From assembly GCA_039208735.1 (NCBI GenBank), contig JBCCQY010000214.1, positions 1 to 12,868 on the forward strand: a stretch of 12,868 nucleotides of DNA. Direction: 5' to 3'. This DNA is from Myxococcota bacterium (lineage in GTDB: Bacteria > Myxococcota_A > UBA796 > GCA-2862545). Made by a program: the position numbers and the translations under genes. Below are positions 716-11,622 of this stretch, in pieces; the stretch's first letter is position 1; each line of letters begins with the position of its first letter. The notes under the pieces are model-generated. The model made no database searches and was not told the DNA's origin. It worked only from the letters and a program-made list of their open reading frames with translations.

Positions 716-1372
716 GTGTTCAATTTCCTGTTCAAGGACAAGGCGACCATGGTGGCCCGCGACCGTGCGCTACCCGGCCACGACACTCGCCCCTACGCGA
801 TTGGCAACGAGCACCATGTGCTGGGCACTCCCATCGAGGGTCCGTTTCCCGAGGGGATGCAGGTGGCTCAATTTGGGATGGGTTGTTTCTGGGGTGCGGA
901 GCGCAAATTCTGGCAGTTCGACGGGGTGTACAGCACTTCGGTGGGCTACGCGGCTGGCTACACGCCAAACCCGACCTACCAAGAGGTCTGCAGCGGCCAA
1001 ACGGGCCATAACGAAGTCGTGCAGGTCGTGTTCGACCCCACGAAGATTCGCTACGAACAGCTGCTGAAGACGTTCTGGGAGAACCACGACCCCACGCAGG
1101 GCATGCGCCAGGGCAATGACGTGGGCACTCAGTACCGGTCTGGGATTTACGTTCACTCCGACGAACAACGCAAGGTCGCCGAGGCGAGTCTGGCCATGTA
1201 CGCCAAGGAACTCGAGCGGGCGGGGCACGGGAGCATCACGACGGAAATTGTGGATGCCGGACCCTATTACTACGCCGAGGATTATCACCAGCAGTATCTC
1301 AGCAAGAACCCAAATGGATACTGCGGTTTAGGCGGAACTGGAGTCTCGTGTCCCGTCGGATTGGATGTCTGA
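716..1372 (+). CDS. msrA: Peptide-methionine (S)-S-oxide reductase MsrA
   Basis: Catalytic GCFWG motif, plus [37 protein letters not shown] and [29 protein letters not shown] (resolving cysteines). GTG at 716 is preceded by RBS GAGGAGG (705-711). Confidence 0.98.
1285..1372 (+). repeat. Resident msrA 3' tail (attL/attB-like copy; no upstream boxes)
   Basis: 88 bp TCACCAGCAGTATCTCAGCAAGAACCC...TTGGATGTCTGA. Similarity to the downstream copies starts exactly at TCACCAG. Confidence 0.9.
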
Positions 1373-1731
1373 ACACATCGAACAGCGTGCCAGAGTCCGC
1401 CACTACAGCCACGTTCCAGGCCATGACCTCTGACGAACTGTCCGAACACACCAGGGCTTCCACGATTCTCCAGCGCATCCATGGGCTCATGTCGATCTCG
1501 ACTTCGCTCTACCGAAGGGTTGGACCTGGGCGTTCAATGTCGTGAGGGGCCCGTTGACAGACGAGGCTCGAACAGCGCTATGGCCGTTCGTCACCACGAT
1601 CGTCTACCAGCGGTTCTTCGTGGTTCGAACCACGTGTCGTGATGAGCGCGCATTCTGCATCGAGATCGTGTCGCGGGCACGACGGAATTCGGCTTCCATG
1701 TCGTGGTCGTGCTGATCGGGGACTGATTTCC

Positions 1732-1776
1732 TTCGAGCAAATTGATCTCTCGATTCGAGCAGTTAATCTGCCCGAC
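1732..1776 (+). promoter_or_regulatory. Putative promoter/operator of the nucleotidyltransferase operon (possibly leaderless)
   Basis: Imperfect direct repeat TTCGAGCAAATTGATCT / TTCGAGCAGTTAATCT. TTGATC (1742-1747) is 16 bp from TAATCT (1764-1769), and ATG lies 7 nt further with no SD. The segment is also conserved in the relic at 9319-9360. Confidence 0.5.
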
Positions 1777-2346
1777 ATGTACAACAATGCCGAGCTGGAC
1801 GAGGCGCTCACAGCGCTGGGCGAAATCCTGGCAGACCGAGGTGAGACCTTCGACATCGTCGTGATCGGAGGTGGAGCCCTGTTGCTCCTCGGCCTGGTCG
1901 AACGCGCCACCAAGGACCTGGACGTGCTCGCCCGGATCGAAGGTGATGCTTGGGTTCGAGCCGAGCCGTTCCCGCCCGCACTCGAAGCCGCCGTCCATGA
2001 CGTCGCTGCCGCATTGGATCTGTCGGACGACTGGCTGAACCCAGGCCCCACCGATCTCCTCGACTTCGGACTGCCGAGCGGGTTCGCAGACCGCGTCTTC
2101 TCGGGCCTCACGGTCCGACTGGCATCGCGTGATGATCAAGTCGCGTTCAAGCTCTACGCCGCCGCAGATCAGTGGCCGAGCGAGAGCCGTCATCTGTCCG
2201 ATCTTCGAGCGCTCGCTCCGACCCGCGAGGAGTTGTTGGCCGCCGCCCGCTGGTGCCGTACGCACGATCCGTCGAGCGGGTTTCGCAATGTACTCCTGCT
2301 GCCCGTGCTCACGGCCCTTGGGGTCGAGGATGCCGACGATGTCTAG
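1777..2346 (+). CDS. Nucleotidyltransferase, DUF6036/AbiEii-like (putative TA component)
   Basis: VVIGGGALLLLGLVERATKDLDVL (GG..A...R.T.D.D pol-beta-type NTase motif), WLNPGP and KLYAAAD. Start chosen at ATG 1777 after the putative -10. Confidence 0.8.
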   Translation: MYNNAELDEALTALGEILADRGETFDIVVIGGGALLLLGLVERATKDLDVLARIEGDAWVRAEPFPPALEAAVHDVAAALDLSDDWLNPGPTDLLDFGLPSGFADRVFSGLTVRLASRDDQVAFKLYAAADQWPSESRHLSDLRALAPTREELLAAARWCRTHDPSSGFRNVLLLPVLTALGVEDADDV

Positions 2347-3277
2347 CGAGCGCATTCGAGCGGCCGTACGCGACCTCTGGTGGAGCGCCTTCACGGAGCT
2401 GGGCGTTCCGGGCGTCGTCCGTCATCACCAGGATGTAGCTATCGACCCGGAGCCGCTGGTCGTCACGGCTCCCGGCATCTTCGGTCTCGATGCGCGTCTG
2501 CGCGATCAGATTTATGCGTGGTGTGCGACCCACGGATCGAAGCTCTCCGCCAGCCGGCTACAGGGCCTGGCCCGCCAGCTCGGCGCCGGAGCGCAATCCG
2601 ACTTTGCGAGCTTCGCGGCGACGCTACGAGCAGAGGCCGACGTCAGGTGGTCGGTCGCAGGCGAGCCCTGGCCCCACCCTCCTGAGGTCCGTCCGCCGCG
2701 ACTGCCACTCGAACGACCTGCGCTGATCAGACTGCGGCTCCGGGCGCTCTGTGGCGTGGGAGCCCGAGCTGACGTACTGTGCGAGCTGCTGCCGAAGGGC
2801 GACTGGGTGCGAGCCGCTGATCTGGCTTCGGAGGGCTACTCCAAGCGCTCCATCGCGAACATTCTCGCGGAGCTGGCCGCCGCCAACATCGCTCGGAGCA
2901 GGCCCGTGGGGAACGCGATCGTGTATCGGCTGGGGCATGCCGATCTCCTCGGGCAGCTCGTCGGACCGCGCCCCTCTGCGTTTCCGAGGTGGCGCCAGGT
3001 GGTCGCTCTCGCGCTGGAGGCCACCCGCTTGGCGGAGCTGGAGGCCAAGCCGGCGACAGTGCGACGGGTCGAAGCGACGCGTGTCCGCGAGAACCTCGCC
3101 CAGACGGCGTCCGAGCTGGGAGTGGCCGAACCGCCTCCGACTCGCGGCCATCCCGATGGATGGGCAAGGCTCGTCGAGTGGTGCGCAGACCAAGTGGAGA
3201 CCTTTGCATGTGGAGCCTCGGTCGCCATGCAGCCAACATCGTCGTCGGTCGAGCCCGGACAGGAAGAACGAGCCTGA
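2339..3277 (+). CDS. Conserved HTH-containing protein, partner of the nucleotidyltransferase (putative antitoxin/regulator)
   Basis: Overlaps the NTase stop (ATGTCTAG) and has GAGG upstream. LWWSAFTELGV...IDPEPL N-terminus; central wHTH-like segment RLRALCGVGARADVLCELL...RAADLASEGYSKRSIANILAELAAANIARSRPVGNAIVYRL. Confidence 0.7.
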   Translation: MSSERIRAAVRDLWWSAFTELGVPGVVRHHQDVAIDPEPLVVTAPGIFGLDARLRDQIYAWCATHGSKLSASRLQGLARQLGAGAQSDFASFAATLRAEADVRWSVAGEPWPHPPEVRPPRLPLERPALIRLRLRALCGVGARADVLCELLPKGDWVRAADLASEGYSKRSIANILAELAAANIARSRPVGNAIVYRLGHADLLGQLVGPRPSAFPRWRQVVALALEATRLAELEAKPATVRRVEATRVRENLAQTASELGVAEPPPTRGHPDGWARLVEWCADQVETFACGASVAMQPTSSSVEPGQEERA

Positions 3278-3284
3278 CGACGCT

Positions 3285-3442
3285 TTGGACACTTCGCCGG
3301 GTTCCTTGGACACTTCGCTGGATAGTCGGCCTTAAACCTGGCCCAGGAGTACTGTCACCAGCAGCATCTCAGCAAGAACCCAAATGGATACTGCGGTTTG
3401 GGCGGAACTGGAGTCTCGTGTCCGGTGGGGTTGGACACTTGA
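3285..3442 (+). repeat. Composite att-like site R1 (two boxes + core + msrA tail)
   Basis: TTGGACACTTCGC at 3285 and 3306; core GTACTG-TCACCAG-CAGCAT with TCACCAG at 3355; tail encodes [28 protein letters not shown]. Confidence 0.95.
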
Positions 3443-3455
3443 CTGACGCTGCCGC

Positions 3456-3643
3456 CTACGTGGGGCCTGCTTTCGTATGGTGCGCCTGATCTGGGTGACT
3501 TGGGAGAGCCGGGTACTTTCGCTCCAGCTGCCCAGCCTCGAGGGTTGTGACGGTTCGGGAAAGCGCGGAGGCGATTTGCTGGGGAGTCCGACATGGTCCT
3601 GAACAGAGACTCAGGATCGCAGCCTCGACCTCCGAGCGCGGCG
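3456..3643 (-). pseudogene. C-terminal remnant of a wHTH-tailed ATP-binding/AlbA-type or Fic-like protein
   Basis: RTPRSEVEAAILSLCSGPCRTPQQIASALSRTVTTLEAGQLERKYPALPSHPDQAHHT resembles the 'IL.LC....T..EIA..L.R....L.R.YP..P.HP.Q.Y' C-terminus. It has no start of its own and is fused to another relic. Confidence 0.55.
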
Positions 3644-3819
3644 TCCGGATCCTCACCGATAGAGCGCACCTGTCCAGAAGCTCTTTGGTCCTCGTCTCCA
3701 GCTCGAAAGCCCACAACGCGTTCGGCCCTCCCCAGTTGTTGGGGTCGGTGACCGAACCGCCCGGCGCGATCCATCCCCCGGGATCTTGCACCGCGTACGA
3801 CTCGATGAAGTCGTCACTG
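3644..3819 (-). pseudogene. Relic of the 3' end of the hypothetical gene at 7579-8313
   Basis: Aligns with 7570-7747 (SDDFIE.YAVQ.PGGW.APGGSVTDPNNWGGP.ALWAFELET). It is 176 vs 178 bp, so a 2-bp deletion frameshifts it, and the 5' part is absent. Confidence 0.9.
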
Positions 3820-3834
3820 TCACGTCGTGGGAAC

Positions 3835-4257
3835 TCACTCCCCTGCATCCAGGTCCTTGGCAAGGACCAAACCGTGTGGCACGTAGCTCGGCACCCAGGA
3901 GTCCTCTGACAACAGTGGAAGTCCCTCGCTCAGGGCCTGTGCGACGAGCATCCGATCAAAGGGGTCCCGATGACCTCCCTCTGGATAAGGCAGCACCGCC
4001 ACGCGCTCGGCATGCGCTCGCCTCACATCGAGAATCGTGTAGCCACGGGCTGCAACCTCACGCGCGAAGAAGTCGGCTGGGGAGACGGGGAGCGGAAGCT
4101 TCCCGATCCCGTACTTGATGCTGATCTCCCACAGTGAGGCAACGCTCACGACCAAAACGTTCCTGCGATCTCGAAATAGGGCCCGGGTGGCGCCTCGAAG
4201 CCGAGGATCCCCAATCGCCGCCCATAGCAGAACGTGCGTATCGAGGAGGATTCTCAT
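3835..4257 (-). CDS. vapC: VapC-family PIN domain toxin (Sll0205-like)
   Basis: MRILLDTHVLLW...VSVASLWEISIKYGIGKL...HRDPFDRMLVAQAL.EGLPLLSED; 4-bp ATGA overlap with the upstream antitoxin. Confidence 0.93.
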   Translation of the reverse strand: MRILLDTHVLLWAAIGDPRLRGATRALFRDRRNVLVVSVASLWEISIKYGIGKLPLPVSPADFFAREVAARGYTILDVRRAHAERVAVLPYPEGGHRDPFDRMLVAQALSEGLPLLSEDSWVPSYVPHGLVLAKDLDAGE

Positions 4258-4508
4258 CGATAGTCCGCGAAGTCGTCGAGAGGATCATCCCAGTCCTCCG
4301 GGAGAACGAAAGACCACCCGCCAATAGGACGATGAGCATCCTCGGCGGACGAATGGGCAGGCCCCTCGACCAGTCGTCGAGCCTGTGCAACGAGCGTGTC
4401 CGTGACGAACGCAGTCAGTGTCGAGTTGGTGAGTCGGGCGGCACGCTCGATCAGCTCCTTCTTTTCCGGCGAGATCCGCAGCTCCAGACGCGCGGTAGAG
4501 CCTGGCAC
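4254..4508 (-). CDS. Antitoxin: DUF1778-like RHH N-terminus with an acidic VapB-type tail
   Basis: TARLELRISPEKKELIERAARLTNSTLTAFV is DUF1778/TacA-like; the C-terminus is RPIGGWSFVLPEDWDDPLDDFADYR. GTG start with RBS AAGGAGG. Confidence 0.85.
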   Translation of the reverse strand: MPGSTARLELRISPEKKELIERAARLTNSTLTAFVTDTLVAQARRLVEGPAHSSAEDAHRPIGGWSFVLPEDWDDPLDDFADYR

Positions 4509-4517
4509 GAGGCCTCC

Positions 4518-4542
4518 TTGTACGGCAATGCCAGCCGTACAA
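4518..4542. promoter_or_regulatory. Palindromic operator upstream of the antitoxin
   Basis: Perfect inverted repeat TTGTACGGC-N7-GCCGTACAA abutting the RBS. Resembles the TGTACGG...CCGTACA operators of KacA/AtaR-type DUF1778 RHH antitoxins. Confidence 0.8.
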
Positions 4543-4589
4543 TCAGGCTAGCACGCTCGACGGCAGGCGGGAAGGGCCGGGAATCGGTC

Positions 4590-4747
4590 TTGGACACTTC
4601 GCCAGATCTCTTAGACACTTCGCTCGATAGTATGGTTCAAAACTGACTTGGGAATACTGTCACCAGCAGTATCTAAGCAAAAACCCAAACGGCTACTGTG
4701 GTTTGGGCGGAACCGGTGTATCCTGCCCAGTAGGTCTGGACGTCTGA
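4590..4747 (+). repeat. Composite att-like site R2
   Basis: Boxes at 4590 and 4611; perfect core ATACTG-TCACCAG-CAGTAT (4654-4672). The tail encodes [28 protein letters not shown], identical in protein to MsrA despite 16 nucleotide differences. Confidence 0.95.
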
Positions 4748-4798
4748 CGGCGACGACCGAGAACCGCAGGAGCTGCGACCTGAGAGAGGAGTGAGCGC

Positions 4799-5299
4799 GT
4801 GAATCCGGCAACCAAGGTTGTCTTGCGCTACATCTTTCCATCCGAGGTCGAAGTCGCGTCGGATGTCACCATCGTCCGCTCGGACTCCCATCTGCCCGCC
4901 TGGCTGCGCGACGCCAACCCTGGCGGGTGGCATCCCATCGAGTGGGACGAGCTGCTCGATGGACGCCTCGGTCCCTGGGCAATGGTCGTGGATTGCGAGC
5001 GAGTCATTTCGATCGCCCACACGCCGGTTCCCATGACCGACGAGGTCGCAGAGTGCGGCGTATGGACCAAGCCCGGCTCGCGCGGTCGGGGCCATGCAAC
5101 GGCGAGCGCCTCGATGTGGGCCGAGGTCCTTCGACCGTCGGGTCGGCGCCTCGTCTATCGAACGACCGAAGACAACCTTTCCTCTCGGCGCGTCGCCGAG
5201 AGGCTACGGCTGCGTCTCGTCAGCCGCACCGAGGAGCCTCGCGACGACCACGTCAGCAACCTGCACCCGCTCAGCTCGGTCCGGCAGGTCAGCGAGTAG
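4799..5299 (+). CDS. GNAT family N-acetyltransferase
   Basis: AECGVWTKPGSRGRGHATA (acetyl-CoA binding motif A) and YRTTEDNLSSRRVAERL (motif B). GAGGAG lies upstream of the GTG. Confidence 0.85.
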   Translation: MNPATKVVLRYIFPSEVEVASDVTIVRSDSHLPAWLRDANPGGWHPIEWDELLDGRLGPWAMVVDCERVISIAHTPVPMTDEVAECGVWTKPGSRGRGHATASASMWAEVLRPSGRRLVYRTTEDNLSSRRVAERLRLRLVSRTEEPRDDHVSNLHPLSSVRQVSE

Positions 5300-5377
5300 C
5301 GCCTCGACTGCCGACGCCCTGACGACGATCGCGCGTACCCGCACGCCGCGCTACGCTCGGGCTTGTGGAGGCCAGAG

Positions 5378-5596
5378 ATGGTGGACTTAATCATCGTCGA
5401 CCCTGACATCATGCGCGGCAAGCCCGTAGTCGGCGGCACACGCGTGACCGTCGAGTACATCCTCGACCAGCTCGGGCACGGGCACTCGATCGACGAACTC
5501 CTCCAGGGGCACCCCCGGCTGACCCGGGAAGGCATCGAGGCTGCAGTTCAGTACGCCATCGACGCGCTGCGCATGGAACGCGTGGTTGCACGTTGA
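5378..5596 (+). CDS. DUF433 domain antitoxin-like protein
   Basis: IIVDPDIMRGKPVVGGTRVTVEYILDQLGHGHSIDELLQGHPRLTREGIEAAVQYA; RBS GGAGG at 5367-5371. Confidence 0.93.
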   Translation: MVDLIIVDPDIMRGKPVVGGTRVTVEYILDQLGHGHSIDELLQGHPRLTREGIEAAVQYAIDALRMERVVAR

Positions 5597-5955
5597 ACAT
5601 TGTCGCCGACGAGAACCTGCACCGGGGCATCGCGGATCGCCTTACCACCGACGGACACGACGTCGTTCATGTTGGCGACTTGTCACCAGCGATCACAGAC
5701 ATCGAAGTTCTGCGTCTGACCGTGGAGCGAGAAGCGTTGATGATCACCAACGACCTCGACTTCGGAGAGCTGGTGTTTCGTGGAGCTGCGAGCCATGCGG
5801 GTGTCCTGTTGGTTCGCTTGGCTGACATGGCGTTCGAGGACCAAGCGGAGTTGGTCTCGACGACAGTTACCGATCACGGAGAGGCCCTCGAAGGCGCGTT
5901 CTCCGTTCTGACCGCGCGCAAGCTGCGAATTCGCGGTGGGTCAGCCGGATCATGA
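5593..5955 (+). CDS. DUF5615 family PIN-like protein (VapC45-like toxin)
   Basis: IVADENL...GHDVVHV...DIEVLRL...LMITNDLDFGELVF...HAGVLLVRL; TTG start overlaps the DUF433 stop. Confidence 0.9.
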   Translation: MNIVADENLHRGIADRLTTDGHDVVHVGDLSPAITDIEVLRLTVEREALMITNDLDFGELVFRGAASHAGVLLVRLADMAFEDQAELVSTTVTDHGEALEGAFSVLTARKLRIRGGSAGS

Positions 5956-5981
5956 GCCTTGGGCCGCGCAGTGATGCCGGT

Positions 5982-6067
5982 TTGGACACTTCGCCGGACC
6001 CCTTAGACACTTCGCCAGATAGCGGCCTTCGAACCTGCACCAGGAAAACTGACACCAGCAGTCTAAG
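5982..6067 (+). repeat. Composite att-like site R3 (msrA tail deleted)
   Basis: Boxes at 5982 and 6003; degenerate core AAACTG-ACACCAG-CAGTCT at +70 (6052). Similarity to msrA ends after about 15 bp. Confidence 0.88.
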
Positions 6068-6116
6068 GACTTCCACCTGGAGCGTTCGGGAAGAGCCTGG
6101 AAGCGAGCATCGGCTG

Positions 6117-7532
6117 TTACGTCACCTTGACTTGCCAAACCGCGCGTGGGTCCTTGGTTGAATTCCCCACCCATTCGATTAGACCCACCTCTTGCAACGC
6201 CCGGAGCCTCCGCAACAGGGTCGGCCTGGAGACGCCCGTCTGCTCCACGAGAGCCCCCGTACCGGCCGGGCCTTCTCGGAGCACCCGGAGGAGGTCGCGC
6301 TCTTCTCGGGGAAGTCGCCCCTCCAGTTCGACGTCGATGGGCTCGGAGGACAGGACCAGGCGCACGGAACCGGCCGTCTGGTAGTAGCGGGGCTCCACGA
6401 GGCCCGCGAGACGCATCTCCTCGAAGATGCGTCGAATGCCCTCCCCCAACTCCTGTCCGAAATCGAGATCAGCGCAGACACGGGCGATCCTTGGATTTCG
6501 AGCGAAGCGCGAGATCCCGACCGGATCGTTGAGGTCCACGAGCCCGGGAAACCTCCCCGGACTCTCGACTTCGATCCGGTCATCGAAGATCTCGATCCGG
6601 ATGTGGTCGCCCGCTACGCTGTAGGCGCGGTGAACAACGGCATTGACGAGCCCTTCCAACCACGCGTCGCGAGGGACCACCCCGATGGAGTCGAAGCGGC
6701 CGGCGGTCGTCATGGCCCGACGCGTCGGAACGAGTGCTTCGATCGCTCGCCGGGCGTCTTCGAGCATCTTCGGGATCGGCCCCTCGAAGTGCCGATCCTC
6801 AGCGAGTTGCTGCCGACTGCCTGCGCCTCGCTCTCGACCACGGTACCGGAGCACCCTGACGCGAGCCTCGGGTAGGAGCCGCTGGGGATGGTTCCCGAAG
6901 AGGAGCCAGCCGGCCACGGTGACCCGTCCGTCGGACTTGAGGAGTCCCCGCGCTACGAGGAGCCGCCTCGCATCTGGATGGCCGACGGCCTCGGCATACT
7001 CGCGGAGCAGCTCGATCGAGAGATCCGAGAATGCCGCTCCGTCGATCGGGTTGACCTCGAAGCTCGCCTGTCCCTTCTCGTAGAGCAGCTCCAGACGTTG
7101 CGAAAAGGTCAGGCGCCGGTTCTCGTCACCGACACGCAGCAAGACGTCGTCCTTGACGGTCGCATGAACCTGGGTGCTGGGGTCGACCCTGACGACAACG
7201 AGGTGATTGGCCTGCCCCTTCGCATCGATACACGCGATCTTCGAGAAGCTGGAACGGAGAGGAGGAACCGCGAAGTCGAACGTCGCCTGACGCCACGCGT
7301 TCTCTGCCTGTGCTCCGACGTGGTCCGTTCCTTCGATACGCCCCGAGGATAAGCCGATGACGAGGTGTCCTCCCTCGGCATTGGCCATCGCGATCGCTGC
7401 TTCGGCCAGCTCTCGGGCACCGATGCGAGCACTCTTGCGATCGAACCACTGGTTCTCGGTGAGAGAGAGGGTGGCGAGGCCGACTTCATCCGGTGGAAGG
7501 GCGAGGGCTCGGCGGACGCGGGCGGTGGACAT
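6117..7532 (-). CDS. Schlafen/AlbA_2 domain + HATPase_c_4 (RecG-C-like) + C-terminal wHTH protein
   Basis: ENQWFDRKS...AMANAEGGHLVIG (AlbA_2); EGLVNAVVHRAYS...IEIFDDRIEVESPG...RNPRIA...QELGEGIRRI (HATPase_c_4); GVSRPTLLRRLRALQEVGLIEWVG (wHTH). Confidence 0.92.
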   Translation of the reverse strand: MSTARVRRALALPPDEVGLATLSLTENQWFDRKSARIGARELAEAAIAMANAEGGHLVIGLSSGRIEGTDHVGAQAENAWRQATFDFAVPPLRSSFSKIACIDAKGQANHLVVVRVDPSTQVHATVKDDVLLRVGDENRRLTFSQRLELLYEKGQASFEVNPIDGAAFSDLSIELLREYAEAVGHPDARRLLVARGLLKSDGRVTVAGWLLFGNHPQRLLPEARVRVLRYRGRERGAGSRQQLAEDRHFEGPIPKMLEDARRAIEALVPTRRAMTTAGRFDSIGVVPRDAWLEGLVNAVVHRAYSVAGDHIRIEIFDDRIEVESPGRFPGLVDLNDPVGISRFARNPRIARVCADLDFGQELGEGIRRIFEEMRLAGLVEPRYYQTAGSVRLVLSSEPIDVELEGRLPREERDLLRVLREGPAGTGALVEQTGVSRPTLLRRLRALQEVGLIEWVGNSTKDPRAVWQVKVT

Positions 7533-7536
7533 GAAA

Positions 7537-7559
7537 CTACTCTAACAATTTTAGAGTAG
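7537..7559. promoter_or_regulatory. Palindromic operator/promoter immediately upstream of the AlbA_2 gene
   Basis: Perfect inverted repeat CTACTCTAA-N5-TTAGAGTAG in an AT-rich patch, 4 bp from the ATG at 7532; no SD. Confidence 0.7.
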
Positions 7560-7578
7560 CGATAGCATATCCGGATCC

Positions 7579-8313
7579 TCACCGATAGAGCGCTCCTGTC
7601 CAGAAGCGCTCTCCGGTCTTTGTCTCCAGCTCGAAAGCCCACAACGCGTCCGGCCCTCCCCAGTTGTTGGGGTCGGTGACCGAACCGCCCGGAGCGAGCC
7701 ATCCCCCAGGACCCTGCACCGCGTACCACTCGATGAAGTCGTCACTGGTGAAGAACCGATCGGTGAAGTTGTTCAGCTCGAACAGGTCACCTTTCGTGCG
7801 AAAGTAGCCGCCGAACCTCACGACACGGAGGGGTTGGCCGTGATGGTTGGTCAGCGTGGTCGAGCAATACGATCGATCCGCTGGACGAGCGCCAGAGCGG
7901 CCAAAGTCGACGCTGACCCTGCTTGCTCCGGCCAGAACCTCGGATTGCGACAATCGGTGTTCGACCGGCTCTCCTTCGAGCGGTTGAGATCGGGCGCCCG
8001 GCGGAAGGTGACCGATCGTCCTCGGCTCGAAGTCGACCACGACTTGGTTCCCGTAGGTCGCGACGTACGCTCGAACGTCGAGAAGCACAGCTGTGTCGCC
8101 ATCGGCGAGTCGCAGGTGGCCGGCGTCGAAGCCGTGCGCCTCGACCCAGTTTGGTGGGTCGTCCGAGACCGACACCCAGAGCTTATACCTCCCAATCTCA
8201 CCGGTGTAGTAGGGGAGCCTCGGCAATACCGCAGGCGAGCGGAGGAGCACGAGAGCGCCGAGCCCTCCAACGACGAGGATGCCCAACGCTACCACCGCCA
8301 GAACCGGCTTCAT
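7579..8313 (-). CDS. Hypothetical protein with N-terminal membrane anchor/signal
   Basis: MKPVLAVVALGILVVGGLGALVLLR hydrophobic N-terminus; GAGG upstream of ATG 8313. Coding status is supported by a diverged homologous relic at 3644-3819. Confidence 0.75.
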   Translation of the reverse strand: MKPVLAVVALGILVVGGLGALVLLRSPAVLPRLPYYTGEIGRYKLWVSVSDDPPNWVEAHGFDAGHLRLADGDTAVLLDVRAYVATYGNQVVVDFEPRTIGHLPPGARSQPLEGEPVEHRLSQSEVLAGASRVSVDFGRSGARPADRSYCSTTLTNHHGQPLRVVRFGGYFRTKGDLFELNNFTDRFFTSDDFIEWYAVQGPGGWLAPGGSVTDPNNWGGPDALWAFELETKTGERFWTGALYR

Positions 8314-8443
8314 CCAGGCCTCACATCCGTTGTCCACCGGCATCATGGCATTGGACCCCGTTAACGTCGAGGTGAGCACCGCCACCACCTCGATCGGGCG
8401 CAGCCAACAAGAACATCACGCGATCAGTGACCACGGAGTGTGA

Positions 8444-8601
8444 TTGGACACTTCGCCACATTCCTTGGACACTTCGCTAGAAAGTCGAGCTTGAAACTGG
8501 TTTGGGAATACTGTCACCAGCCGTATCTCAGCAAGAACCCAAATGGATACTGCGGTTTGGGCGGAACCGGAGTCTCCTGTCCGGTCGGGTTGGACGTCTA
8601 A
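8444..8601 (+). repeat. Composite att-like site R4
   Basis: Boxes at 8444 and 8465; core ATACTG-TCACCAG-CCGTAT with TCACCAG at 8514; tail encodes [28 protein letters not shown] (TAA stop). Confidence 0.95.
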
Positions 8602-8658
8602 TCGATCCCAGATCGCGTACTCGTGTGCAACACCTTCCTTCCAGGGGCGTCGAGGCCC

Positions 8659-9156
8659 TCAGGTTCCAAGCTGGGTCGATGGCACCCCGAACAACATCCG
8701 CCGTTCGACTGGATCGACCTTCAACACGACAACCTCGACGGCCTCTGCGACACGAGGCAGGTCGGAGCCTTCCGGCAGCCTGGAGATGTGAAGGAGACCC
8801 TCCATCTCCTCCTCCGGGCTCACAATCGCGCCGTAGGGCGCCACGAGAGTCACCCGACCACGCACCTTCGAGCCTTCGGCGTAGCGCTCCACGGCGTCCG
8901 CCCACGGATCTGGCCGTAGTTGCCGAGTACCGAGCAAGACTCTCCGGTCGTCGACCAGCACCTTGAGAACCACGGTCAGCACTTGGTCGCCGATCTCGAA
9001 GCAGTCCTTGGGGGACGGATTCCTGGTTCCCCAGCTCATTTCGTGAAGTGGGACCAGCCCCGTGAACTCACCCAGATCGATGAACAACCCGAAGTCGGTG
9101 ACTCGGACCACAGTGCTCGCGATTCGATCCCCGGGTCGCCATTGCGGCACTCTCAT
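8659..9156 (-). CDS. Small protein with two S1 RNA-binding domains (RpsA-like repeats)
   Basis: GDRIASTVVRVTDFGLFIDLGEFTGLVPLHEMSW...GDQVLTVVLKV...RRVLLGTRQLRPDPW...GSKVRGRVTLVAPYGAIV...EGLLHISRL...VEVVVLKVDPVERRMLFG. Confidence 0.88.
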   Translation of the reverse strand: MRVPQWRPGDRIASTVVRVTDFGLFIDLGEFTGLVPLHEMSWGTRNPSPKDCFEIGDQVLTVVLKVLVDDRRVLLGTRQLRPDPWADAVERYAEGSKVRGRVTLVAPYGAIVSPEEEMEGLLHISRLPEGSDLPRVAEAVEVVVLKVDPVERRMLFGVPSTQLGT

Positions 9157-9318
9157 CGCCTCGTGGGAGGATTGCCGCGCCCACGCCGGACCAGCGCACC
9201 ATCTTCAACGAGACGCTTCAACAGGTGCGATGCCTGGTCCCGACCGAGGTGGCAGAGGCGAACCACATCACGACGGAGAATGCCGCCATGCCCGGGAACC
9301 AGAGGCAGAGGTTCGTCT

Positions 9319-10047
9319 GAGCAGATTGATTTCCCGATTCGAGCAGTTGATCTGCTCGATATCTACGGTAACGCGGAACTGGCACAGGTTCCTCGGTCTG
9401 GTCGAGCGCACCACCAAGGACCTTGACGTTCTCGCCCGGATCGAGGGCCAACTGATCTCCTCGACTTCGGCCTTCCGAGCGGGTTCGCCGAACGAGTCGA
9501 GTCACGCGTCTTCGCGGGCCTCACGGTCCGACTCGCATCGCGATGATCAGCTTGCAGGAGCGAAGCGACGAAAGCTGACCGCGTAGGCCTGCAGGCGCGG
9601 AGCGCCGAAGGCCAGCGGTGAGCAGACTCGCGCAAGCGTTGCTTGCTGCTGATCAAGTTGCCTTCAAGCTCTACGCCGCCGCGGATCAGTGGCCGAGCGA
9701 GAGTCAGCACCTCTCCGATCTTCGAACCCTCACGCCGACTCGCGCGGAGCTGTTGACTGCCGCCCGCTGTTGCCGATCGCACGATCCGTCGAGCGAGTTT
9801 CGCGACGTACTCCTACTACTGGTGCTTGCTTCTCTTGGCGTTGAGGACACGCATTCACCGAGTTGGGCGTTCCTGGCGTGATCCGCCATCATCAGGAGGT
9901 GGCCATCGACCCAGAGCCCTTGATCGTCACAGCTCCAGGCGTATTCGGCCTCGGAGCCGAGGCCGATGTCCGTTGGTCGGTCGCAGGGGAGCCCTGGTCT
10001 CATCCTCTCGAGGTCCGTCCGCCGCGATTGCCGCTCGAACGGCCTGC
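9319..10047 (+). pseudogene. Decayed relic of the nucleotidyltransferase + HTH operon (homologous to ~1735-2721)
   Basis: Collinear blocks: promoter, LGLVERTTKDLDVLARIEG, PTDLLDFGLPSGFA, DQVAFKLYAAADQWPSES..., ELGVPGVIRHHQEVAIDPEPL, AEADVRWSVAGEPW...LPLERPA. Start ATG is changed to ATC, with several internal deletions and one insertion. Confidence 0.92.
9544..9655. mobile_element. Miniature structured insertion (REP/MITE-like) with duplicated TGATCA
   Basis: 106 bp extra relative to the intact NTase gene. TGATCA occurs at 9544-9549 and 9650-9655, the ends read TGATCAGC...GCTGATCA, and there are two internal 28-nt hairpin modules. Confidence 0.7.
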
Positions 10048-10122
10048 ACGGTACCTCGATCGGCATGCTGCCCGCAGCCTCATGGGTCGATCCCGGGTGA
10101 CAGGAACTGGGCTGATGTGCCT

Positions 10123-10246
10123 CTGGACACTTCGTCAGATTCCTTAGACGCTTCGCTCGATAGTCAAGCAAGAACCTGGCCCACAAACCTTGCCACCAGC
10201 AATGTCTTCAGCAAGAACCCAAGTGGATACTTCGGTTTAGGCGGAA
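10123..10246 (+). repeat. Composite att-like site R5 (degenerate)
   Basis: Boxes CTGGACACTTCGT (10123) and TTAGACGCTTCGC (10144); degenerate core at 10193; msrA tail has a 1-bp insertion and substitutions and is truncated after GGCGGAA. Confidence 0.88.
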
Positions 10247-10252
10247 TCTGTT

Positions 10253-10372
10253 TTCCGCCTGGAGCGTTCGGGAAGAGCCTGGAAGCGAGCATTGGCTGTC
10301 ATGTCACCTTGACTTGCCAAACCGCGCGTGGGTCGTTGGTTGGAAAGTCGCCCCTCCAGCTCGACGTCGATG
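10253..10372 (-). pseudogene. Relic of the 3' end and flank of the AlbA_2 gene
   Basis: 10253-10342 matches 6071-6160, and 10343-10372 matches 6310-6339 (about 149 bp deleted between the blocks). Confidence 0.9.
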
Positions 10373-10489
10373 CGTGGTCCGTTCGGTACTCGTGGAATCG
10401 GGGTGTTCCTTGCGGTCCCGTTCTCCAATCAGTATGCAGTGGAGACAAAGAGTGTCCAGACTATGGACAAACCCGGAGAGGAGACCACA

Positions 10490-11314
10490 ATGGCACGTTT
10501 TTGGATTCTGAATCTTGGTATTTCAGGGCTCCTGTTTACCGCCTGTGCGGGCGACGACAAGACCGATTCTGGGATCGAAGCGGACGCCGATGCCGATGCT
10601 GATGCCGACGCCGACGCGGATGCAGACACCGACGCCGACACCGACGCCGACACCGATGCCGACGCGTCGATTCGCGTCCTCCATCTGGCTCCGGATGTCC
10701 CTGACGTCCAGGTCTTGGCGAACGACGCGACGCCCGCCGCCGTGCCCTCGCTTGCCTTCAAGGACGGCACGGACTACATCGCGCTGCCCGCTGGAACGTA
10801 CAACTTCAAGGTTGCGCTCGCCGACAGCACCGACCCGGTCAAGGAAGCGGCGTTGAACGAAGATGTTCCGCTCGAGGCAGGCATGAGCTACGTCGCGGTG
10901 GCTCACGGCTATTTGGGAGATCCCAAGCCCGGCAACCTCGTTCTCACGCCGTTCGTCGAGAATCGTGACGGAATCAAGGCCGGCAATACCCGTCTGCACA
11001 TCGTTCACGCGGCTTCGCGGACGCCCCAGGTCGATATCTGGAACGTGACCGATCCGAAGAACCCGAGCCCCATCCTCGAGAATGTCGACTACGGCATGGA
11101 AGGCGACGTCGACATCCCGAACGCTGCGGTCGAGGTCGGCTTCGACGCGGACGACGATGGCGTTCCGGACCTCGTCTACAGCGTTCCCGCCCTCGGCGAT
11201 GGCGCGTACATCAGTGTGTACGCGGTGAACCGCGACGCCAAGGCCACTCCCTTCGACGTGGACCTCGTCGCGCACCTCGAAGACGGCACCACGGCCGTTC
11301 TGACCCCCAACTGA
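10490..11314 (+). CDS. Lipoprotein with acidic DA/DT repeat linker and DUF4397-type domains
   Basis: RBS GAGGAG; signal peptide MARFWILNLGISGLLFTAC (lipobox); IRVLHLAPDVPDVQVLAN...YIALPAGTYNFKV and RLHIVHAASRTPQVDIW. Confidence 0.85.
   Translation: MARFWILNLGISGLLFTACAGDDKTDSGIEADADADADADADADADTDADTDADTDADASIRVLHLAPDVPDVQVLANDATPAAVPSLAFKDGTDYIALPAGTYNFKVALADSTDPVKEAALNEDVPLEAGMSYVAVAHGYLGDPKPGNLVLTPFVENRDGIKAGNTRLHIVHAASRTPQVDIWNVTDPKNPSPILENVDYGMEGDVDIPNAAVEVGFDADDDGVPDLVYSVPALGDGAYISVYAVNRDAKATPFDVDLVAHLEDGTTAVLTPN
10580..10666 (+). repeat. Coding hexamer repeat (GAYGCN/GACACC) encoding ADADADADADADADADTDADTDADTDADA
   Basis: Directly visible low-complexity tandem repeat within the lipoprotein gene. 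Confidence 0.9.
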
Positions 11315-11468
11315 GACTCGCGATCTGGTGAGGTCGAACGGCGAACGGCGAAAAACGTTTGCTCGTCGATGCGGATGGGGATCGCGCACTCGCCGTTCGA
11401 CCTGGAGTTTCCGAGCGGGCCTCGCCTCCCTGCTGCAAAAGCCCGGCTCGCGATCATGGCCGCGAGTC
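11315..11468. other. Structured intergenic element (nested inverted repeats)
   Basis: AGGTCGAACGGCGA (11331-11344) / TCGCCGTTCGACCT (11390-11403) is a perfect 14-bp inverted repeat. GACTCGCG (11315-11322) / CGCGAGTC (11461-11468) is an outer pair. Confidence 0.5.
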
Positions 11469-11622
11469 CGGTGCGACGGGCGGCTCCTGCCCGGCCGGCT
11501 TGGATCTTCGATGAGGATCCGGACAACGGGGGAAGCCTCTTAAGCCACAGACCACTCCCCTTGACCTCGCCAAGGGGGGCTAGGGTTGACTTAAACCATA
11601 TGGCCTGGACATCGGAGGCCCT

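Follow-up and report, generated by a model that had tools for sequence, protein, structure and literature searches.

The DNA analysed here, referred to below as the window, is the entire 12,868-nucleotide contig JBCCQY010000214.1 of Myxococcota assembly GCA_039208735.1, a fragmented 9.4-Mb metagenome bin with a GC content of 64%, a completeness of 92.7% and 6% contamination. The window carries the gene msrA, followed on its 3' side by a tandem array of five islets of 1.3–2.5 kb with a copy of the end of msrA (the tail) at every joint, three copies being whole and two broken (Table 1). The intact target gene and the displaced 3' fragments all have the same orientation, and the core-to-core lengths along the array are 2070, 1305, 1392, 2462 and 1679 nucleotides.

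Table 1. Features of the msrA locus and of the array behind it (positions in the window).
Feature	Positions	Strand	Description
msrA	716..1372	+	218 residues, bovine/E. coli type, C-terminal GYC...SCP; PMSR E = 3e-64; TIGR00401 above cut-off
Predicted integration site in msrA	1279..1297	+	7-bp spacer 1285–1291; Tyr-His-Gln codons; start of homology to all repeats
Resident tail	1286..1372	+	28 codons and stop
Unit 1 body	1373..3284	+	AbiEii/DUF6036-like nucleotidyltransferase 1777–2346; overlapping 315-residue ORF 2330–3277
Junction R1	3285..3442	+	Arm doublet 3285/3306; core spacer 3355–3361; tail 3356–3442
Unit 2 body	3443..4589	-	176-nt remnant (3644–3819) of the unit-4 ORF end; PIN gene 3835–4257; TacA1-like antitoxin 4254–4508
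Junction R2, right-end arm	4590..4659	+	Doublet 4590 and 4611; left core half-site 4654–4659
R2 core and tail	4660..4747	+	Spacer 4660–4666; right half-site 4667–4672; displaced msrA tail 4661–4747
Unit 3 body	4748..5981	+	GNAT 4799–5299; DUF433 5378–5596; DUF5615 5593–5955
Junction R3	5982..6116	+	Doublet 5982/6003; core; tail deleted; half of an inverted left arm site and left-end spacer remain
Unit 4 body	6117..8443	-	Schlafen AlbA_2-HATPase_c_4-HTH gene 6117–7532; 269-residue ORF 7579–8388
Junction R4	8444..8601	+	Doublet 8444/8465; core spacer 8514–8520; tail 8515–8601 with Q>P
Unit 5 body	8602..10122	.	S1-domain gene 8659–9156 (-); broken relative of the unit-1 gene pair 9312–10047
Junction R5	10123..10372	+	Degenerate doublet; frameshifted, truncated tail 10194–10246; left-end spacer; remnant of the AlbA gene 3' end

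The encoded MsrA can be aligned to bovine MsrA (PDB entry 1fva) as far as the last cysteine. In mammalian MsrA the resolving pair is formed by the two C-terminal cysteines, according to the accessible text of PMC13678007, and with the alignment this suggests the same role for the two tail cysteines here, in agreement with a preliminary description of the window, made from its sequence, which had placed both resolving cysteines in the tail. The resident tail was likely supplied by unit 1: its GC3 is 0.50 compared with 0.79 in the body of msrA, and its end, together with the following ~115 nucleotides, is 77% like the first unit of a related genome (G002).

The overlapping genes of unit 1 are likely a type IV toxin–antitoxin pair, and 79–90% identity to them is retained by the broken pair of unit 5, which holds a dispersed-repeat insertion. 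Neither the larger ORF of unit 1 nor the 269-residue ORF of unit 4 (95% conserved in genome G001) has a match in Pfam or PADLOC, or an NCBIfam match near the cut-off. A scan of the window for promoters and terminators gave no excess above shuffled sequences.

Junction anatomy and predicted crossover site

All five junctions are built alike, with a doublet of TTGGACACTT-like 10-mers at 71 and 50 bases before the His codon, followed by the core and the tail. The doublet motif is confined to the window contig within its own genome, and an extra arm motif at 3431–3440 overlaps the last codons of the R1 tail. The R2 core reads ATACTG-TCACCAG-CAGTAT, that is, inverted repeats flanking a 7-bp spacer.

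For comparison, 51 displaced sites, distributed over 18 genomes and 11 metagenome contigs, were curated from the part of the genome matches that was examined and from 15 metagenome pattern matches. Left out of the counts were L133 and L135 (resident genes fitting the pattern by chance), L128 and L137 (the same arrays as G078 and G088), L050, L051, L052, L069, L073, L074 and L112–L114 (longer fragments, resembling paralogues or lacking a clear junction) and L145 (found later). The right arm motif occurs at −71/−50 in 43 of the 51 displaced sites and in none of 19 resident controls, with a matrix that had been trained on the displaced sites. The displaced tails nearly all start at (Y)HQQY, and the symmetry across the displaced sites peaks at a 7-bp spacer whose first base is the Tyr wobble base, immediately preceding the His codon. 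At this first spacer base, 25 of 30 sites match their host (per-genome Fisher P = 0.008), compared with a host concordance of 13/30, 12/30 and 4/30 at positions −2, −4 and −6; position −3 is also concordant (28/30) because it is nearly always T.

A lambda-type layout consists of a 7-bp overlap and arm sites. As a sequence pattern, the junctions show the same arrangement, inverted core repeats on either side of a 7-bp overlap, accompanied by arm-type sites, and an integrase would be expected to bind and cleave at these core and arm sites.

Divergence of the displaced tails

The substitutions reported in the preliminary description for R2, R4 and R1 were reproduced in full when recounted against the resident tail, and no copy carries the upstream msrA sequence in frame, as had also been stated. 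In R2 all 16 of 16 substitutions over the 28 codons are synonymous (pS 0.81, pN 0; binomial P = 9e-11 under changes falling by site number), and the displaced tail thus encodes a protein identical to the resident tail. R4 has six synonymous changes, TGA>TAA and a single replacement, Q>P at codon 3 (P = 2.5e-4), a position at which a Gln codon (8522) is read in run X2, whereas R1 has five synonymous changes and two replaced codons involving four nucleotides (P = 0.035). The comparison of R1 with R4 alone is not significant (P = 0.14), and the argument therefore rests on R2. The broken tails are those of R3 (6053, deleted) and R5 (10194, frameshift and truncation).

The claim that the tails had been selected as the MsrA C-terminus was upheld in a larger sample: 25 colinear pairs of resident and displaced tails, compared over 23 codons after frameshifted tails and two truncated tails had been set aside, gave pS 0.468, pN 0.076 and a Jukes–Cantor dN/dS of 0.11, with pN below pS in 25 of 25 pairs. 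The pN/pS ratio among resident–resident pairs is nearly equal to that between resident and displaced tails (0.153 versus 0.162). In 14 of the 25 pairs the resident tail of another host is closer to the displaced tail than that of its own host, whereas for the three whole tails of the window the nearest is their own resident tail, a closeness that local recombination could equally well produce. The further claim that the copies are not simple local duplications is sustained by R2; R1 and R4 alone would also be compatible with recent duplication.

A clustering of damage in the core codons of displaced tails was considered and rejected (16/164 versus 25/410, P = 0.15). A second tail type, YC[NM]HG[PF]NGVSC, was observed both as resident and as displaced tail (L109, L110, L115, L138 and L145); in L138 it is displaced behind a host gene with the other type of resident tail, which indicates that swaps can change the protein.

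Integrases behind msrA in related genomes

A PF00589 scan gave no match on the window contig, including its five units, the same genome having eight PF00589 and two resolvase matches elsewhere, and an integrase of the type described below was not found in this 92.7% complete genome (best tblastn match E = 2.8e-4; none at E 0.01 in a profile search). In six relatives, G126, G130, G087, G183, G382 and G160, a tyrosine integrase lies directly after the msrA stop codon on the same strand. The two best matches of the G126 integrase in the order are those of G130 (E = 1e-69) and G087 (E = 1e-67), both located behind msrA; among 30 integrase loci examined in the order, msrA is present at three. G183, G382 and G160 came from a profile search across 301 genomes of the phylum, with msrA at 4 of 15 loci; integrases of similar score in G061 and G064 lack an msrA gene within 1.5 kb, so the integrase group is not restricted to msrA.

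The stretch from the stop codon to the integrase contains an inverted copy of the arm motif followed, 50–60 bases on, by a direct copy. L134, possibly a circular attP form or else a junction within a tandem, has doublet, core, tail and integrase in succession, with left arms that score below the threshold; from this order, each tail is to be assigned to the unit that follows it downstream, and the R2 tail thus belongs to unit 3.

The 44 ORFs behind four of the integrases gave no Pfam match to relaxases, type IV secretion systems or phage structural proteins in these partly assembled elements, whose distal ends fall outside the assemblies, and relatives of the integrase were not found in viral contigs. 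The same ORFs match restriction, helicase, DUF3854, RelA/SpoT and AlbA_2-HATPase families. The G130 island (L108 10190–13617) contains a class II prokaryotic Argonaute with a helical-REase partner as well as a second tyrosine recombinase. Large DUF3854 proteins, possible replication proteins of the parent elements, are encoded in two integrase-bearing islands (L164 11444–14140 and L120 6566–9103).

Sharing of units between hosts

A search with the tail in 154 genomes of the order gave a match in 125, many of them with several, and arrays similar to that of the window were found in 17 other genomes and 11 metagenome contigs. In G001, unit 4 is the first unit behind msrA, with an inverted arm site and 95% identity over 2.2 kb. 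Third codon positions differ between the window and G001 at 54 of 472 sites in unit 4 compared with 67 of 150 in msrA; this lower divergence points to a transfer that postdates the separation of the species, the left junction lacking its integrase by then. In G003 both left arms, followed by a DUF433/DUF5615 pair 71% like that of unit 3, lie directly behind msrA, and in G002 the same position is taken by a left end 77% like that of unit 1. The earlier proposal that each unit once stood first in an array thus gains support from relatives of three window units, with the correction that the tail goes with the downstream unit.

In addition, the TacA1 end of unit 2 with its doublet is 77% like a G001 contig (L015), the displaced tail and flank of L127 are identical to the resident copy of L131 (120/120), and contigs from the mat runs X2 and X4 contain fragments of units 1, 3 and 4 (about 90–97%). 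Overall, there are signs that integrase-less units are still on the move. No excision joint between junctions was found among the joints listed, rare forms being dropped from contigs; the run X2 joints 3256–10277 and 6099–9172 were not used because of their short sides (30 and 39 nucleotides).

In several families, the msrA site repeatedly holds a gene for an HTH_3 antitoxin-like protein together with one for an AbiEii-like nucleotidyltransferase (L058 14519–15480, L065 3185–4152, L057 15577–16515 and L139). Just after the tail-less att junction of G001 lies a segment (L015 226–440) that, judged by its motif, is an IS5-like transposase remnant.

Probable integration and decay, and alternative explanations

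The synonymous divergence of the tails, the junction anatomy, the integrases behind msrA and the occurrence of units in first position in congeners together make it most likely that arriving elements provide a functional MsrA C-terminus. With high probability, the tails are the left ends of elements that integrated successively at the 3' end of msrA, each replacing the last 28 codons, and that later decayed. An element would insert at this end and bring a working replacement for these codons, and the previous tail would be pushed outward by each arrival to become a silent fragment. A tyrosine integrase is predicted to recombine at the 7-bp spacer (T/C)CACCAG between the inverted core sites and to use a 10-bp motif with the consensus [TG]TGnnCACTT as its arm sites. 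Because the tail holds both resolving cysteines, it would be under purifying selection as long as its element is the newest in some host. Deletions would later strip the integrase and the left arms, and small right-end remnants rich in toxin–antitoxin genes would persist, presumably still able to travel with or by means of a visiting integrase.

Several observations point to a decay of the units. An intact integrase is found in none of 30 core-to-core intervals (median 1.9 kb, 25 under 3 kb), in a sample in which assembly favours short intervals, and one of the 30 retains an integrase remnant (a 45-residue N-terminus in G147); in L126 and L129 the left arms are kept up to the start region of the integrase, the integrase itself being gone. 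Right arms are present at five of five window junctions, whereas the inverted left arm is present at none of six left ends in the window and in 12 of 64 tails overall. The most decayed members, unit 5 and the R5 remnant, lie distally in the array and are damaged relatives of units 1 and 4, although the order is not strict, R3 being worse damaged than R4. By comparison with G001, where a full tail and an inverted site precede the sequence matching the stretch after R3, the R3 tail is read as lost through deletion. A V>T change in the last codon of R1 creates a perfect arm motif at 3431; rather than a point change, it probably marks a deletion at microhomology between the end of the tail and the second left arm site. 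The toxin–antitoxin genes may halt further deletion.

It is alternatively conceivable, though improbable, that the units are a standing class of non-autonomous mini-cassettes inserted singly by an integrase acting in trans, which is in part compatible with successive integration and decay. The shortness of the intervals and their want of an intact integrase would be expected of such cassettes, as would the integrase-less left junction of unit 4, alike in G000 and G001, the appearance of related cargo twice in the window array and the cargo identity of 82–84% across families in which msrA is 68–69% identical. However, the rarity of the inverted left arm site, the integrase remnants and clean integrase deletions, and the bias of assembly towards short intervals argue against it, and tandem co-transfer with an intact element (cis-mobilization) accounts for the sharing equally well.

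A function of the tails as a silent reservoir, repairing or varying the MsrA C-terminus by recombination, is very unlikely. Both cysteines are kept in 37 of 44 displaced tails and the resident tail of G002 has a mosaic look, but R2 encodes the resident protein, so that no variation would be gained, R3 and R5 are destroyed, and of 41 colinear displaced tails only 12 contain no residue that is absent from all resident tails. Stops and cysteine losses occur among the rest, indicating that tails decay once displaced. There is next to no likelihood that the tails are local duplications translated in place as small peptides and selected there: R4 lies inside a 53-codon open frame with in-frame start codons, but this frame crosses the arm sites and is closed at the other four junctions, and in R1 and R2 the frame is stopped 11 codons upstream, with no ATG, GTG or TTG in the interval. 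An assembly artefact that mixed strains or relatives, for which the fragmentation and contamination of the bin might speak, is just as implausible in view of the similar arrays elsewhere and of run X1 contigs, possibly from the source sample and hence not independent, that cross the R1, R2–R3 and R4 junctions with zero differences at an even depth of ~8–10.

Beyond the successive integration and decay of elements, it is possible, but rather doubtful, that msrA serves marine and mat Myxococcota as a platform for gene capture, at which an undescribed integrase group circulates integrase-less, att-flanked toxin–antitoxin/defence cassettes of 1–2 kb between species. Stacking would be newest-first, in the manner of an integron that has no integrase of its own, and the redox-active C-terminus would effectively be inherited via the mobile pool and not the host chromosome.

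Comparison with known systems

Integron cassette arrays consist of 1–2 kb units rich in toxin–antitoxin genes and have a resident integrase and attC palindromes. The msrA array resembles them in its 1–2 kb toxin–antitoxin-rich units, of which the newest is probably first, but it has no resident integrase (no PF00589 match on the contig), and its junction repeats are direct doublets and the msrA tail with no evident attC-type palindrome, suggesting double-stranded core and arm sites of the lambda type. A counterpart is found at icd of E. coli, where phage 21 integrates at the same site as prophage e14. In E. coli K-12, e14 integrates in the 3' part of the gene and supplies a replacement C-terminus, and the displaced fragment icdC differs largely at synonymous sites, as at msrA, according to the accessible text of PMC13626634. 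On the same source, e14 is a single element with its integrase, whereas the msrA array comprises five stacked remnants, the replaced part holds the resolving cysteines, and the parent elements are without phage genes in the parts scanned.

Integrase-less stacked remnants at the 3' end of protein genes are also known from streptococci, where CIMEs and tandem accretion occur at fda, rpsI, rpmG and rplL, and the accessible parts of PMC7563491 and PMC5704250 describe CIME remnants of 1.2–13 kb, the most decayed being most distal, that are mobile with an intact neighbour. The window units have likewise lost their recombination and transfer genes. In the same descriptions, however, CIMEs keep attL and attR, whereas the window units are mostly without left arm sites; CIMEs derive from ICEs or IMEs, whereas the parents at the msrA site look like defence islands without relaxase matches; and S. 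salivarius has at most three members, by a method that needs an ICE/IME neighbour, compared with five in the msrA array, none of them intact. Because their left att arms are mostly gone, the units do not qualify as CIMEs in the strict sense. The tandem islands found by Islander at tRNA and tmRNA genes are similar in that the target and displaced fragments mark the ends and a tyrosine integrase is involved, as far as the available text of PMC4383910 goes. Islander requires a tDNA target, an integrase for each member and at least 2 kb, and lists four tandems of three or more among 3919 islands (PMC4383910, same text); with these requirements the msrA arrays would be filtered out.

The mechanism is thus already known, and the msrA target is apparently undescribed: it was not found in the literature consulted, which included the main text of PMC13626063, a supplement of PMC12884075 and the accessible part of PMC5704250, and the TIGER/Islander tables may list the site. 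What is new is msrA as a target in Myxococcota, with the integrase group that goes with it, the long arrays that are integrase-less throughout, a one-sided loss that affects the left ends, and the 95% match between species in a unit without an integrase. A new integration hotspot in a conserved Myxococcota gene, with an integrase group and a predicted attB, 7-bp overlap and arm sites, is directly testable and may be of use for engineering. Island finders that require an integrase and a tRNA target miss these arrays, and this store of toxin–antitoxin and defence genes is therefore left out of their counts. With the dated series of displaced tails, the turnover and decay of islands can be measured, and the loss of integrase and left arms from one side hints at the way in which hosts fix cargo. 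The terminus of an essential-type repair enzyme that carries its cysteines can, moreover, have a mobile origin.

Other features of the window

The insertion in the broken nucleotidyltransferase of unit 5 (9541–9655) is a REP-like dispersed repeat of ~110 bp, present in dozens of copies genome-wide, some of them in tandem. Beyond the array, inverted TGGACA-containing sites resembling the arm motif (10454–10491), with two divergent promoter-like matches, lie upstream of a DUF4397 lipoprotein-like gene and are possibly the last att remnant. This gene (10490–11314) has an Asp-Ala/Asp-Thr repeat linker and many look-alikes genome-wide. A 30-bp sequence at 11444–11473 is shared with a G001 contig end (L046 5834–5863), where it interrupts the unit-4 ORF, and is probably a small dispersed repeat.
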